Shown here: positions 1 through 10,732 of the stretch, piece by piece
Numbering within the stretch: the first letter of the stretch is position 1
Layout: each line of letters starts with the position of its first letter
IMG/VR virus record: IMGVR_UViG_2778261447_000015
Coordinates: 1-12,979 of that record
Length of the DNA: 12,979 nucleotides
Direction: 5' to 3' (one strand)
Source of the DNA: a virus
Lineage: Duplodnaviria > Heunggongvirae > Uroviricota > Caudoviricetes
Notes under the pieces: model-generated
Seen by the model: the letters and a program-made list of their open reading frames with translations, nothing else
Told to the model about the DNA's origin: nothing
The model's database searches: none
Position numbers and translations under genes: made by a program

Positions 1-1254
1 ATGCTGGAACAAATGGGCATTGCCGCGAAGCAAGCCTCGTATAAATTAGCGCAACTCTCCAGCCGCGAAAAAAATCGCGTGCTGGAAAAAATCGCCGATG
101 AACTGGAAGCACAAAGCGAAATCATCCTCAACGCTAACGCCCAGGATGTTGCTGACGCGCGAGCCAATGGCCTTAGCGAAGCGATGCTTGACCGTCTGGC
201 ACTGACGCCCGCACGGCTGAAAGGCATTGCCGACGATGTACGTCAGGTGTGCAACCTCGCCGATCCGGTGGGGCAGGTAATCGATGGCGGCGTACTGGAC
301 AGCGGCCTGCGTCTTGAGCGTCGTCGCGTACCGCTGGGGGTTATTGGCGTGATTTATGAAGCGCGCCCGAACGTGACGGTTGATGTCGCTTCGCTGTGCC
401 TGAAAACCGGTAATGCGGTGATCCTGCGCGGTGGCAAAGAAACGTGTCGCACTAACGCTGCAACGGTGGCGGTGATTCAGGACGCCCTGAAATCCTGCGG
501 CTTACCGGCGGGTGCCGTGCAGGCGATTGATAATCCTGACCGTGCGCTGGTCAGTGAAATGCTGCGTATGGATAAATACATCGACATGCTGATCCCGCGT
601 GGTGGCGCTGGTTTGCATAAACTGTGCCGTGAACAGTCGACAATCCCGGTGATCACAGGTGGTATAGGCGTATGCCATATTTACGTTGATGAAAGTGTAG
701 AGATCGCTGAAGCATTAAAAGTGATCGTCAACGCGAAAACTCAGCGTCCGAGCACATGTAATACGGTTGAAACGTTGCTGGTGAATAAAAACATCGCCGA
801 TAGCTTCCTGCCCGCATTAAGCAAACAAATGGCGGAAAGCGGCGTGACATTACACGCAGATGCAGCTGCACTGGCGCAGTTGCAGGCAGGCCCTGCGAAG
901 GTGGTTGCTGTTAAAGCCGAAGAGTATGACGATGAGTTTCTGTCATTAGATTTGAACGTCAAAATCGTCAGCGATCTTGACGATGCCATCGCCCATATTC
1001 GTGAACACGGCACACAACACTCCGATGCGATCCTGACCCGCGATATGCGCAACGCCCAGCGTTTTGTTAACGAAGTGGATTCGTCCGCTGTTTACGTTAA
1101 CGCCTCTACGCGTTTTACCGACGGCGGCCAGTTTGGTCTGGGTGCGGAAGTGGCGGTAAGCACACAAAAACTCCACGCGCGTGGCCCAATGGGGCTGGAA
1201 GCACTGACCACTTACAAGTGGATCGGCATTGGTGATTACACCATTCGTGCGTAA
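1..1254 (+). CDS. proA: gamma-glutamyl phosphate reductase (ProA), complete
   Basis: 417 aa ORF starting at window position 1 with ATG and ending TAA at 1252-1254. The translation matches enterobacterial ProA as I recall it ([16 protein letters not shown]... ending ...GDYTIRA). Confidence 0.95.
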
Positions 1255-1368
1255 ATAAAACCGGGTGATGCAAAAGTAGCCATTTGATTCACAAGGCCAT
1301 TGACGCATCGCCCGGTTAGTTTTAACCTTGTCCACCGTGATTCACGTTCGTGAACATGTCCTTTCAGG

Positions 1369-1444
1369 GCCGATATAGCTCAGTTGGTAGAGCAGCGCAT
1401 TCGTAATGCGAAGGTCGTAGGTTCGACTCCTATTATCGGCACCA
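1369..1444 (+). tRNA. thrW: tRNA-Thr (anticodon CGT), thrW-type
   Basis: 76 nt with acceptor stem GCCGATA/TATCGGC, D-loop AGCTCAGTTGGTAGAGC, anticodon loop TTCGTAA, T-arm GGTTCGACTCC, discriminator A and encoded CCA. A phage integrase gene starts 15 bp downstream. Confidence 0.92.
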
Positions 1445-1458
1445 TTTAAATCAATAAG

Positions 1459-2619
1459 TTACCTCGCATTTAAGTAAACTACGTTCTCCTCTTGTGCCGT
1501 ATTTGTGTCATTGCGACTTATAATCGCATCGATTTTGCTCGCGTGCTCGGTGAGATGCCCGGCTGAAAGGTGGGCGTATCTTTGAACCATTTCGAGAGTT
1601 TCCCATCCTCCCATCTCTTTAAGTGCAAGAAGAGAGACACCGGACTGAACCAGCCAGCTTGCCCAGGTATGCCTCAGGTCATGGAAGCGGAAGTTGCTAA
1701 TGCCTGCTCGCTTTAACGCTCCCTTCCATGCCTTGTTGCTGTCGGTTCTCATCTTCCTTACCGCTGCTGTTTTTGTTCCGTCGCTTCGGTAGGCAGGTTT
1801 GGTGTGGACAAACACCCATCTCTTATGGAGACCCTGCTGTTTTCTTAATATCTGGCATGCGGTTTCGTTAAGAGGAACTCCGATCGCATTGCCAGCTTTT
1901 GTTTCATCAGGGTGCATCCATGCCATTTTCTTATCCAGATCGACCTGTGACCACTCAAGGTCTGTAACGTTGGAACGGCGAAGGCCTGTCGTGATTGCAA
2001 ACATGACCACAGGGAAGAAATGAGGAGCAATTTCTGCAAACAGGCGCTTCGATTCCTCCTCTGTAAGCCATCTGATTCGTCCATTCTTAACGCGTGGTGT
2101 TGATATTTTGGGCGCCCTGTCAAGCCATCCCCATTCAACAGCCATATTGAGAATAGCGCGAAGTATTGCCAGATGCCGCGTCTTCGTTCCTTTGCTTGCC
2201 AGCTTTGGTTTATACTCCGGCACTGGCTTGCCAAGCCGCAAACACCTGTCCCGGCTCATCTCCCAGTTCAGGCGATGGCGGCGGTTTTCCATCCCGTCTA
2301 CCGCCTCCATTATTTTTTCTGTTGTTATGTCAGAGAGAATGGTTTCTCTGAAGTGCAACATCCAGAACGATATAATGCTCTTGTCATCATCAATGGACTT
2401 CTTATCCGATTTCTCACGCAGCCACCGTATGCAGGCTTCCTTGAATAGCTTTTTCGGTGATTCTCCGAGATTTTTTACTCTCCACGCTTCTGCTTTCAGA
2501 CGATCGTGAAGTTCTTGCGCTTGCCTCTTGTCCGATGTTTCAAGAGAGCGTCTAACTCTTGATCCATCTGGCGCGACGAAATCGCAGTGCCACGTGCCAC
2601 CGCGTAGTTTGATTGACAT
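1459..2619 (-). CDS. int: phage tyrosine integrase (P22/lambda Int family)
   Basis: 386 aa with C-terminal catalytic region motifs (…FRFHDLRHTWASWLVQSGV…LKEMGGWETLEMVQRYAHL). ATG at 2619 is preceded by AGGAGG at 7 nt spacing. It sits next to the tRNA and resembles P22 Int by recall. Confidence 0.9.
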   Translation of the reverse strand: MSIKLRGGTWHCDFVAPDGSRVRRSLETSDKRQAQELHDRLKAEAWRVKNLGESPKKLFKEACIRWLREKSDKKSIDDDKSIISFWMLHFRETILSDITTEKIMEAVDGMENRRHRLNWEMSRDRCLRLGKPVPEYKPKLASKGTKTRHLAILRAILNMAVEWGWLDRAPKISTPRVKNGRIRWLTEEESKRLFAEIAPHFFPVVMFAITTGLRRSNVTDLEWSQVDLDKKMAWMHPDETKAGNAIGVPLNETACQILRKQQGLHKRWVFVHTKPAYRSDGTKTAAVRKMRTDSNKAWKGALKRAGISNFRFHDLRHTWASWLVQSGVSLLALKEMGGWETLEMVQRYAHLSAGHLTEHASKIDAIISRNDTNTAQEENVVYLNAR

Positions 2620-5297: not shown

Positions 5298-5594
5298 TCA
5301 GTCATTACTGATAGCGCCATAGCGTGAGCGGTAATTACGCAGGCGCGGGTCGATATATTCAGGGAAGTGGGTATATGTGGCTTTGCGGAATGGTCGGATT
5401 GATGTCTGGTAAATTCGCTCGTGTTCTTCTTTCTCTGCAAGCCATATACAATGGCGAAATTCCTTTTCCTCTTTCGTTTCCTGCGGTAGCGACATTATCA
5501 GGTCGTAGTTTTTTCTGAATTTATCCAGCACCTCCGATACGGAATTGCCGGAACAGCGGCGCGGGTCATCCGCACCATACAGAGGCGCTGGCAT
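5298..5594 (-). CDS. hypothetical phage protein
   Basis: 98 aa with ATG at 5594 preceded by AGGAGG at 6 nt. It lies immediately downstream of ssb. Confidence 0.5.
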   Translation of the reverse strand: MPAPLYGADDPRRCSGNSVSEVLDKFRKNYDLIMSLPQETKEEKEFRHCIWLAEKEEHERIYQTSIRPFRKATYTHFPEYIDPRLRNYRSRYGAISND

Positions 5595-5607
5595 GATTTC
5601 CTCCTGA

Positions 5608-6123
5608 TTAAATTGCGTGAATAGCGTGACGAGGGAAGGGGAGAGTTACTGGCGCAAATGGTATATCGTCGTCAAACTCCATAGGTGGTTCGCTGTGATT
5701 TCCCTGCTGCTGAGGTTGCTGTCTTTGTTGCTGACCGTTATTTCGCTGAGGTGAAGACTGTTCATTGCCTCCTTGCTTGCCACCAAGCATTTGCATGGTT
5801 CCACCAACGCCCACGATGACTTCGGTAGTGAACCGATCCTGTCCGCTTTGATCCTGCCATTTTCTTGTCCGCAATTTTCCTTCAAGATAAACCTCAGAGC
5901 CTTTTCGCAGATATTCGCTGGCAATTTCTGCCAGTTTCCCGCTCATTACCACGCGGTGCCACTCCGTCTGCTCCTTTTGCTCTCCAGTTTGCTTATCACG
6001 CCATTGTTCTGACGTAGCAACTGTAAGGTTTGCAAATGCCGTTCCTGATGGTGAATATCTGATTTCTGGATCATGCCCAAGGCGACCAATAATGATCACC
6101 TTATTTACGCCTCTGCTTGCCAT
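5608..6123 (-). CDS. ssb: single-stranded DNA-binding protein (SSB) with a 15 aa extension after the DDDIPF motif
   Basis: 171 aa with an OB-fold N-terminus ([18 protein letters not shown]…WHRVV), a Gly/Gln-rich linker and the acidic motif MEFDDDIPF. The ORF continues for 15 more residues ([15 protein letters not shown]) before TAA. Confidence 0.85.
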
Positions 6124-6831
6124 TTATGCCGCCTGTTTTAGCTCGTTAACTCTGATGTTCATTACCTGAACGCATTTAGCCTGCGCCTCCTCGTTTCCAG
6201 CCATTAATTGCCAGTCACGCTGATAACGCTCGATGAGTTTTTTCTTGTCAGTTTCTGTTGACGCATAATCGCTGAAGTCTTTCAGGATTTGTTCGCAGTC
6301 AACCGATGGAGATTTCTGGTTGGTATTTTCTGGTGATGGTTTGTTATCTGATGCTGGGATTGCCCATCCCGGCAGCGATGGAGGGAGCCAGTAAAATCCT
6401 GTTCCATCCTTCAGTTTTGCCCTGTGCCACCCCTGCTTTTTATCGAGAGATGTTTGTGCGAAACCTTCCTCAAGGTTATACAGATACCGACCGATTCCCC
6501 ACTGAACGGCAGCGCGCTTCATTGCACCGGAACGACCACCTTTGACGGCTTCTACCTGCGTGTTTTCAGCAGCATCCCATTTGGTTACCCATTCGGAATC
6601 AATCTTTATTGATATGCCGCATTCAACGCCGCCGTTGTTGGGAATATCGCGGTATTCATTGCGCCATCCTGCTTTGCCGCAAACATCGTCCAGGCGTTTC
6701 ATGATTGCCCGGTTCGTGACATAAGCCAGCACCATAGCCCACACTTTGCCATCGCGTGTTTTACCGCTTTGCTGTATTCGCCATTCGATATCTTCAGGGC
6801 TGAATGGCTCATCGAATTTATTCAAATCCAT
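6124..6831 (-). CDS. Rad52-family single-strand annealing protein (recombinase)
   Basis: 235 aa in the bet/erf position, with its stop adjacent to the ssb start. The core (…GKAGWRNEY…GGVECGISIKID…KRAAVQWGIGRYLYN) resembles Rad52/Sak-type annealases (recall). Confidence 0.7.
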   Translation of the reverse strand: MDLNKFDEPFSPEDIEWRIQQSGKTRDGKVWAMVLAYVTNRAIMKRLDDVCGKAGWRNEYRDIPNNGGVECGISIKIDSEWVTKWDAAENTQVEAVKGGRSGAMKRAAVQWGIGRYLYNLEEGFAQTSLDKKQGWHRAKLKDGTGFYWLPPSLPGWAIPASDNKPSPENTNQKSPSVDCEQILKDFSDYASTETDKKKLIERYQRDWQLMAGNEEAQAKCVQVMNIRVNELKQAA

Positions 6832-10015: not shown

Positions 10016-10732
10016 TCAAACCAGCCTTAGTTTTGTCTCAATTGCAACGCCTATAATCTTGCAGTTTCCATTGATTGGCACGAGAGGCCATGCAGGATTA
10101 AGTCCCTTGAGGTATTTATTTCCGCCGTCGATTATCAGCTTCTTGAATGTTGCTTCGTTAGAGTCAGAAAGTTTTGCTATGACCAAGCTGCCGTTGATCG
10201 CCTCCCTTCCGGTATCGAAAAGAACGAATGTTCCCTCTGGAATGCTTAACCCAACCGGTGCCGTCATTGAATCACCTTCCACTTTAAGCCAGAACGCATT
10301 ACCTTGAATATGCGCGTCAGACTCAAGCCAAACATCTATGTCTTTAATGGTGTATGGTTCGCATGCTTCACACCACGAGCCAGCCTGGATACTGCTTAAC
10401 ACCGGATACCTCTTTCCTGCTCTGTATTCCCCTGCATACCTTACGTTGGCATCGCTCTTAAGGCTTTCTGCCTGTTCTGCAACCTTGGCAGCAATTGACT
10501 GGCTAAAATCAGCAATTGAGACTTGCAACAATCGTGCAAAACCAGATGCAACCTCAACGTTTAGCGCGTTTCTGCCATTAAGATAATGCCCTACCGCTCC
10601 TTGGGTGATACCCAGTTCATCAGCGATTGAGTATTGGGTTATTCCCAATTCTTTCTTTTTTGACTCATACAAAGCCTTAAGCCGCTTAGCGTCTTCGAGC
10701 TGTTCTGTCGTCAGTGATTTTTTATTTTCCAT
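10016..10732 (-). CDS. cI: CI repressor (HTH N-terminal domain, S24 LexA-like C-terminal domain)
   Basis: 238 aa with lambda-CI-like architecture (…LTTEQLEDAKRLKALYESKKKELGITQ…, C-terminal …FWLKVEGDSMTAP… and …FKKLI…). No Shine-Dalgarno precedes the ATG, consistent with a leaderless PRM transcript. Divergent from cro. Confidence 0.9.
   Translation of the reverse strand: MENKKSLTTEQLEDAKRLKALYESKKKELGITQYSIADELGITQGAVGHYLNGRNALNVEVASGFARLLQVSIADFSQSIAAKVAEQAESLKSDANVRYAGEYRAGKRYPVLSSIQAGSWCEACEPYTIKDIDVWLESDAHIQGNAFWLKVEGDSMTAPVGLSIPEGTFVLFDTGREAINGSLVIAKLSDSNEATFKKLIIDGGNKYLKGLNPAWPLVPINGNCKIIGVAIETKLRLV

Follow-up and report, generated by a model that had tools for sequence, protein, structure and literature searches.

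A Conserved 15-Residue Extension beyond the Acidic Tip of a P22-like Prophage SSB and the HNH Endonuclease Gene Found at the Same Junction in Its Relatives

1. The ssb Gene and Its Extended Product

The DNA considered here (the window) is the whole 12,979-nucleotide stretch of the IMG/VR virus record IMGVR_UViG_2778261447_000015, which is the left arm of a prophage of the P22-like (Lederbergvirus) type, and our subject is its ssb gene, encoding a protein that binds single-stranded DNA (an SSB), in which 15 residues (the tail) follow the acidic tip DDDIPF. In the textbook picture, bacterial SSB ends in ...DDDIPF, and this C-terminus with its terminal Phe is the universal dock for more than a dozen genome-maintenance proteins; in the complex structures with ExoI, RecQ, chi and PriA, the alpha-carboxylate of SSB is held by an arginine. 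The first-pass annotation of the window had reported 15 residues beyond DDDIPF, and the translation of 5608-6123 on the minus strand bears this out exactly, both in coordinates and in sequence. The parts of the gene are as follows.

5608..6123, minus strand: ssb, uninterrupted (endonuclease-free) extended allele, 171 amino acids (open reading frame (ORF) and translation; Pfam SSB E = 2e-38; PHROG 44 E = 2e-69)
5809..6108, minus strand: OB-fold DNA-binding and tetramerisation domain, residues 6-105 (Pfam PF00436; AlphaFold2 (AF2) strands E9-113, predicted local distance difference test (pLDDT) ~70-78)
5680..5808, minus strand: Gly/Gln/Pro-rich disordered linker, residues 106-148 (composition; AF2 pLDDT <50 for residues 115-156)
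5656..5679, minus strand: acidic tip EFDDDIPF, residues 149-156, internal and not C-terminal (translation; ratio of nonsynonymous to synonymous polymorphism (pN/pS) of the tip 0.05)
5611..5655, minus strand: 15-residue conserved extension, the tail (translation, homologue clusters, codon analysis)
5608-5610, minus strand: TAA stop of ssb, directly after the tail codons

Compared with bacterial-type SSBs (E. coli SSB, the paralogues of the F plasmid and of prophages; PF00436), the window SSB has the same OB fold, disordered linker and acidic tip. Residues 6-105 match PF00436 with E = 2.1e-38 and the AF2 strand pattern is beta-barrel-like; the linker is rich in Gly, Gln and Pro, with AF2 pLDDT <50 over residues 115-156; and EFDDDIPF at residues 149-156 is a typical acidic amphipathic tip. 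In these sequence features the only difference lies in the position of the tip: with 15 residues beyond Phe156, there is no free Phe carboxylate at the extreme C-terminus, such as is seen in the known partner complexes. An SSB 100% identical to the window protein is encoded on a second viral contig (L203), and the cluster 97% identical to it has 1030 member sequences. A stop-free run of 15 codons is expected by chance at (61/64)^15, about 0.5, which is not unusual, so that the significance of the tail comes from its conservation and not from its stop-free length.

2. Conservation, Selection and Spread of the Tail

First of all, the same 15-residue tail is found in 116 of the 120 closest protein clusters (74-97% identity), which belong to Escherichia, Klebsiella, Salmonella, Citrobacter and Enterobacter, and their consensus is IPF-[AS]-P-[VI]-T-L-P-F-P-R-H-[AT]-[IV]-[HY]-[AV]-[IL]. 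The invariant columns of a 40-sequence alignment include P158, L161, P162, F163, P164, R165 and H166; the final residues vary conservatively and stay non-polar (AI, VI, AL, SI, CL, CI, AM), while the length is fixed at 15 residues. At the DNA level, the exact 38-nt tail sequence occurs in at least 119 IMG/VR contigs, and the contiguous tip plus tail junction in 264 of 5426 complete E. coli genomes. The tail is also present in isolated temperate phages, namely HK75, mEp235, mEpX2, epsilon34, g341c, ECP1 and CP-1639.

Codon analysis was carried out on 20 distinct tail DNA sequences. Read in the ssb frame, the tail has a pN/pS of 0.11, and in the two shifted frames the values are 2.45 and 5.0; the variable sites are distributed as 5/2/12 over the first, second and third codon positions, and the tip codons have a pN/pS of 0.05 across the extended alleles. 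The low, frame-specific pN/pS indicates that the tail is translated and under purifying selection; that is to say, the 15 codons past DDDIPF appear to constitute a genuine, translated and selectively maintained C-terminal peptide.

More distant relatives carry diverged tails which are alignable and of the same length, follow an intact tip, and take the general form IPF-A-P-h-[GT]-L-[PQ]-[FY]-P-x-H-x-h-[HY]-x-h. The SSB of the IncN plasmid pNDM-ECS01 bears such a diverged 15-residue tail; that of pCVMN1543, an 86-kb Salmonella plasmid, ends in APIGLPYPRHTVYCL; a Mixta prophage SSB, whose gene neighbours an AAA_24 (Sak4-like) gene, has the tail AYIGLQYPSHAIHSI; the SSB of a Scandinavium island resembling an integrative and conjugative element (ICE) is also tailed; and Proteus, Providencia and Tatumella contribute the variants APIGLPYPRHAIYVI, APIGLQHPTHFIYSI and others. 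A scan of genome contigs with the SSB recovered mostly chromosomal housekeeping SSBs, and served as background besides yielding three diverged tails. Of the 80 species-representative SSB hits in this background, 76 have PF as their last two residues, and the tail appears to be absent from the chromosomal housekeeping SSBs. The genes of tailed SSBs adjoin Erf/Rad52-like or AAA_24/Sak4-like recombinase genes, and the plasmid ssb has no recombinase gene adjacent. This distribution over mobile elements, together with the varied neighbours, shows the tail to be a mobile-element feature that is not tied to one recombinase; judging from the sequences compared, it marks an SSB lineage of P22-like and lambdoid prophages, a phage-plasmid-like replicon, IncN conjugative plasmids and ICE-like islands. 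On pNDM-ECS01 (L309 2502-3287), a gene for a SprT-family zinc metalloprotease lies in convergent orientation 30 nt past the extended ssb, and antirestriction genes are found nearby.

Other searches gave little. A HMMER search with the 31-residue tip plus tail against 1.84 billion cluster representatives returned 11 hits, mostly fragments, the matches being few because canonical cluster representatives stand for the full-length extended SSBs; some diverged tails were nevertheless supplied by this search. A profile search with 42-residue C-termini returned short partial proteins only, and when the PDB sequences were searched with tip plus tail, the tip alone matched an SSB entry and the tail had no match. 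No description of the tail and no match for its peptide strings was found in the searchable literature, and the epsilon34 genome paper leaves the tail unmentioned; its sole trace is a note in the Sf6 GenBank record, according to which gp26 shares '14 contiguous amino acids' with E. coli SSB.

3. An HNH Endonuclease Gene at the Tip-Tail Junction

A second feature of the locus spans the tip codons in the window and the first codon of the tail:

5653..5679, minus strand: empty insertion site of the Sf6-gp26-type HNH endonuclease gene (window versus Sf6 junction sequences)

The ssb of Sf6 ends in ...NFDDSDIPF and a stop codon, and 9 nt further on the 159-residue endonuclease gene gp26 (L001 2021-2500) begins, whose last 14 residues are the tail residues. 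In such occupied alleles the 27 nt of the site are replaced by the recoded tip NFDDSDIPF, a TAG stop, a 9-nt spacer and a 435-nt HNH frame, and this frame runs on into the tail codons (the window equivalent starts at 5652). Occupied and uninterrupted ssb genes are otherwise 98% identical. For example, the window and Sf6 genes agree at 436 of 444 nt up to the PPM codons (8 differences), and beyond that point 7 substitutions and a 3-nt insertion fall within the last 24 nt before the insert; these altered 24 nt look like the recoded flank expected beside a homing-endonuclease insert.

The first-pass annotation had proposed an alignment with homologues to see where they end, and the answer is divided. 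Among the 80 nearest IMG/VR relatives of the window SSB, most are uninterrupted and extended (45), and the other 35 end in ...DDSDIPF and a stop, each of them (35/35) followed by the gp26-type HNH gene; in 33 of these 35 the tail was located 444 nt downstream, in frame with the endonuclease. The insert is found in 99 of 5426 complete E. coli genomes, and in the 12 of 12 RefSeq E. coli records listed (H93-H104) the HNH ORF between ssb and abc2 (the next gene, for anti-RecBCD protein 2) is unannotated ('none'). In Klebsiella phage phiKp_30 (L318 1809-2012) the HNH copy is decayed, with its start kept, an internal deletion and a 3' remnant out of frame, and the ssb there retains the recoded NFDDSDIPF end. 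In ES18 and Salmonella phage 146851_sal5, ssb ends in ...NFDDEIPF and a stop and is followed by a different endonuclease gene; the ES18 product (gp47) matches Pfam HNH_3, and that of 146851_sal5 is near-identical to it. That is to say, every canonical-ending member of the clade that was examined has an endonuclease gene or remnant right past the ssb stop.

It is therefore through HNH insertion that close relatives such as Sf6 end in ...DIPF, a role of the junction which was absent from the first-pass annotation. Taken together, the alleles indicate that the tip-tail junction is a polymorphic HNH insertion site of which the window carries the uninterrupted allele, and that a selfish HNH endonuclease gene inserts repeatedly at this exact junction. 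That the tail is genuine and selected, and that the window has the uninterrupted allele of the endonuclease insertion site, is held with high confidence.

As for the nuclease itself, gp26 has no Pfam match at E<0.01, and it matches PHROG 2340 ('endonuclease') with E = 2.6e-47; H112, H113, H130, H134 and four Cys are invariant or nearly so among its homologues, and the AF2 model has a pLDDT of 94. Homologues 45-83% identical to gp26 all lie 10-15 nt past an ssb stop, in prophages with three different recombinases, so that this HNH family is specifically associated with ssb 3' ends. The occupied allele shares with free-standing phage HNH homing endonucleases (Sf6 gp26/PHROG 2340; ES18 gp47 HNH_3) the presence/absence polymorphism at a fixed site between near-identical ssb alleles, the altered (recoded) flank and the decayed copies. 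The window differs from them in being the empty site, which a homing enzyme would cleave, its gene then spreading by repair. In the occupied alleles the endonuclease ORF is unusual in that it borrows the last 14 codons and the stop of its target gene.

Several further observations were made at this site. In two prophages (L314 1577-2044 and L315 1560-2027), a second, unrelated endonuclease gene of the HNH_3 type lies between the Rad52-like annealase gene and ssb, which places ssb between two endonuclease genes. Chimeric proteins also occur (P0199, P0131, P0134, P0144, P0173, P0180, P0183), among them one that joins an Ead/Ea22-like N-terminus to the linker, tip and tail of SSB, as well as SSB-HNH fusions and HNH fragments joined to a PF16473 3'-5' exonuclease; such chimeras point to deletions and rearrangements being frequent at the 3' end of ssb. 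In addition, a gene for a PF16473-like 3'-5' exonuclease lies between the tail stop and abc2 in epsilon34 (gene 34, L003 2053-2601) and in L316 (2977 onward), and this nuclease is termed 'unusual in this context' in the epsilon34 genome paper.

4. Proposed Function of the Tail

The best overall explanation, in which we place moderate confidence, combines three parts: a genuine selected tail, an insertion-site allele and a rewired C-terminus. As for the mechanism of rewiring, we tentatively propose that canonical docking is blocked and a new linear motif is provided. The internal tip would weaken or abolish the canonical contacts with ExoI, chi, RecQ, PriA, DnaG and others, and the invariant tail core A-P-h-G/T-L-P/Q-F/Y-P-x-H, with the hydrophobic C-terminus, would offer another short linear motif for docking, made up of tip plus tail or of the tail alone. 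Since the same tail serves very different elements, a partner encoded by the element would be less likely than a conserved protein of the host or SSB itself. In this way the SSB of the element would coat its single-stranded DNA (ssDNA) and yet be rewired away from the host SSB interaction hub. A rewired C-terminus is preferred because simple masking needs no conserved sequence of fixed length, and because the tip stays conserved.

It has been reported that the terminal Phe of SSB sits in a hydrophobic pocket on partner proteins, and that green fluorescent protein (GFP) fused directly to the C-terminus of E. coli SSB makes ExoI binding undetectable and the protein dominant-negative when expressed from a plasmid (PMC7293020). 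In this engineered SSB-C-term-GFP the added residues come right after ...DDDIPF, as they do here, and DNA binding is unaffected (PMC7293020), which makes it the closest experimental analogue for an internal tip. The two differ in that the GFP moiety is an artificial, bulky folded domain, and the window tail is natural, short, disordered, conserved and under selection. A masked tip and a new interaction surface, both of which the first-pass annotation had listed as possibilities, are the best functional interpretations, supported indirectly by the selection on the tail and by the GFP analogue.

Several points weigh against this interpretation. The blocking of the tip is argued from a bulky GFP fusion and not from a 15-residue peptide, and the tip seems as strongly conserved as in canonical SSBs, which is hard to square with simple masking. 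The AF2 monomer of the window SSB is of low confidence (mean pLDDT 58), with the tail at about 55 and forming a short predicted strand. In E. coli and Salmonella phages the DNA of the tail is more uniform than that of the ssb body, and part of the apparent conservation of the tail there reflects recombination and not selection. Finally, phages without the SSB tail are viable (Sf6, IME10, N7 and ES18), and any function of the tail is therefore non-essential; the tail is dispensable.

A bolder form of the proposal, which is possible but rather doubtful, takes tip plus tail as a portable adaptor on the SSBs of Enterobacterales mobile elements, cutting them off from the host interactome and tying them to a single conserved factor of the host (for example the sliding clamp, some protease or a recombination/replication protein); in occupied alleles the homing endonuclease would gain the same peptide. 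Three other ideas were considered and set aside. Docking specific to Erf was judged unlikely, since the tail also occurs beside an AAA_24/Sak4-like gene and on a plasmid without an adjacent recombinase gene, and since ES18, Sf6 and the window have Erf genes of the same size and position despite their different SSB ends. A translocation signal for a secretion system of type IV (T4SS) on plasmid SSBs was dropped, most carriers being prophages without a T4SS. As for frameshifting or recoding at the tip, no convincing slippery site was seen by eye, and the +1-frame TAA in CCAGTAACT gives no canonical tip.

5. Alternative Explanations

Besides the rewired C-terminus, the tail may be a pro-peptide, that is, a protease could clip between Phe156 and Ala157 and free the canonical DDDIPF-COOH tip when and where it is needed. 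The very strong purifying selection still acting on the internal tip would be expected from this, and endonuclease insertion does yield an exact canonical end in viable phages; a SprT-family metalloprotease gene adjoins ssb on the IncN plasmid as well, perhaps by coincidence. But no protease gene accompanies the prophage copies, we know of no protease for the Phe156-Ala157 site, and the tail is conserved throughout, down to its final residues and its fixed length of 15 residues, which goes beyond what a removable cap needs. We consider this explanation unlikely.

Unlikely to the same degree is a C-terminal degron, in which the hydrophobic end (...H-A-I-H-A-I) would send SSB, and in occupied alleles likewise the endonuclease, to an ATP-dependent protease and so limit its level or lifetime. 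Non-polar C-termini and the ...RRKKAI end of MuA are signals for ClpX or proteases. The last residues of the tail are indeed always I, L, M or F after a small residue, the tail is disordered in the AF2 models of both SSB and the HNH protein, and HNH genes 47-48% identical to gp26 are still in frame with it. The near-invariant internal core of the tail, however, is left unexplained by a degron, and one HNH copy has its own stop codon right before the tail.

It is still less likely, and quite improbable, that the tail is a motif for the sliding clamp (DnaN), whereby P-V-T-L-P-F would link ssDNA coated by the element's SSB to the replication machinery. All the hosts involved have the clamp as a conserved protein of their own, which fits a partner common to unrelated elements, and the spacing h-x-L-x-[FY] is kept in the tail variants VTLPF, IGLPY, IGLQY and LGMQW. 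The clamp hexapeptides resembled are Hda QLSLPL and Pol IV QLVLGL. With the beta-clamp motifs (QL[S/D]LF; QLxLxL) the tail shares a short, hydrophobic, Pro/Gly-tolerant C-terminal pattern h-x-L-x-aromatic, which is a resemblance and not membership, and a weak one in view of so short and degenerate a motif. The clamp consensus is QL[S/D]LF, and its conserved glutamine makes defined contacts in every solved complex (PMC3716654). The tail lacks this glutamine and has an invariant Pro158 at its position in the 40 close homologues aligned; moreover, eight further conserved residues follow the motif.

Another possibility, slightly less probable again, is that the 45 nt are kept as DNA or RNA: as mosaic boundary sequence, as part of the recognition site of the endonuclease, or for translational coupling to the next gene. 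Locally the DNA is indeed conserved: that of the tail is identical at 45/45 positions in the window (5608-5652), Sf6 (L001 2456-2500) and epsilon34 (L003 2000-2044), although the epsilon34 ssb body is only ~75% identical to that of the window, and homology with epsilon34 stops right at the ssb stop codon. Moreover, the pS of the tail (0.44) is lower than that of the tip (0.80), and the abc2 Shine-Dalgarno sequence AGGAGG (5600-5605) lies 2 nt beyond the ssb stop. What speaks against this is that Klebsiella-type alleles alter many third positions and keep the peptide (e.g., CCTGCGACATTACCATTTCCTCGCCAC...), that the pN/pS of 0.11 is specific to the ssb frame, and that the tail is kept before different genes, namely an exonuclease gene (epsilon34, L316) and a convergent protease gene (IncN plasmid). 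Recombination at the boundary may add to selection on the protein and does not replace it.

It may also be asked whether the tail was first the HNH protein's own C-terminal end and became joined to ssb, as a deletion scar, when the endonuclease gene was lost. In Sf6-type alleles 14 tail residues do form the HNH C-terminus, and the copy in phiKp_30 is decayed. Against this, the conserved core of 77 HNH homologues ends in ...WHKxNxPIY and is followed by short unrelated ends, the tail being found only on HNH copies inserted at tail-bearing ssb genes, where copies 47-48% identical to gp26 also read in frame into it. The PHROG 2340 profile spans gp26 residues 1-143 only, and in the AF2 model the HNH fold has a pLDDT of ~97-98 through residue 140, with the tail (~56) outside the fold. 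The tail variants on HNH proteins (AIHAI, AIYAI, AIHAL, TIHAI) represent part of the range found on SSBs, and the diverged tails (APIGLPYPRH..., AYIGLQYPSH...) occur on SSBs only, including plasmid SSBs without a nearby HNH gene. Lastly, the junction residue is Ala or Ser in nearly all extended SSBs, and a simple deletion in Sf6 would leave Glu. The tail thus appears to belong to ssb and not to the endonuclease, and a deletion scar is highly improbable. A separate observation is that the native acidic end of the endonuclease, ...KPIYPDEE, aligns at the DNA level with SSB ...PPMEFDDD (CCTAT...GACGA; L001 2435-2458 versus window 5656-5685) just before the shared tail, which could be chance, or microhomology used in the original fusion.

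Finally, the read-through lesion and the sequencing error which the first-pass annotation had raised, by which an ancestral stop after DDDIPF was lost and the 15 residues are meaningless, find support in close relatives such as Sf6 and ES18 that end exactly at ...DIPF, but are already refuted and have practically no probability left, since many intact phage SSBs share the conserved extension (116/120 closest clusters in five genera, 264 complete E. coli genomes), diverged alignable tails occur on IncN plasmids and in distant genera, the tail pN/pS is 0.11, and the canonical-ending relatives examined all have an endonuclease gene or remnant right past the stop.

6. Genomic Setting of the Window

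The remaining features of the window are those of the left arm of such a prophage:

1-1254: aldehyde-dehydrogenase-family gene, which we take to be proA
1369-1444: tRNA-Thr(CGU)
1459-2619, minus strand: integrase gene
5298..5594, minus strand: abc2 (anti-RecBCD protein 2; Pfam PF11043 E = 2.5e-62)
6124..6831, minus strand: gene for a Rad52/Erf-like single-strand annealing protein (Pfam PF04098 E = 5e-26; PHROG 1097 Erf-like E = 3.5e-130)
10016-10732: cI-type repressor gene

The window also encodes kil, cIII, cII, an O-like replication gene and the start of a DnaB-like gene. The prophage lies at the classic P22-type attachment region, where the aldehyde-dehydrogenase-family gene and the tRNA-Thr CGU are followed by the integrase gene (window 1-2619). 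The erf-type annealase gene ends directly before the ssb start codon, and at the other end of ssb the tail coincides with a mosaic module boundary. The ssb gene lies in a phage recombination module, beside the annealase gene. It has been reported that phage HK620 likewise pairs a cognate SSB with its annealase Sak4, and that this SSB is a distant homologue ending in NDYPPF (PMC5928155).

7. Significance

In summary, a large natural SSB family breaks the rule of the terminal tip in a conserved manner, and its members occur in prophages of roughly 5% of the complete E. coli genomes, as well as on IncN plasmids with NDM resistance genes. They are relevant as well to recombineering toolkits, in which annealases are paired with cognate SSBs. 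Nature has provided matched controls in the form of near-identical phages that differ only in an endonuclease gene cutting the tail off SSB, and the question of the tail is therefore directly testable. If the partners of the tailed SSB are indeed rewired, this would show how phages and plasmids shield ssDNA intermediates of their own (among them substrates of recombination and conjugative strands on entry) from the nucleases and helicases of the host, or steer them to a chosen host machine. Should the more doubtful adaptor proposal also be true, the tail would amount to a previously unrecognised second 'code' on the C-termini of SSBs.

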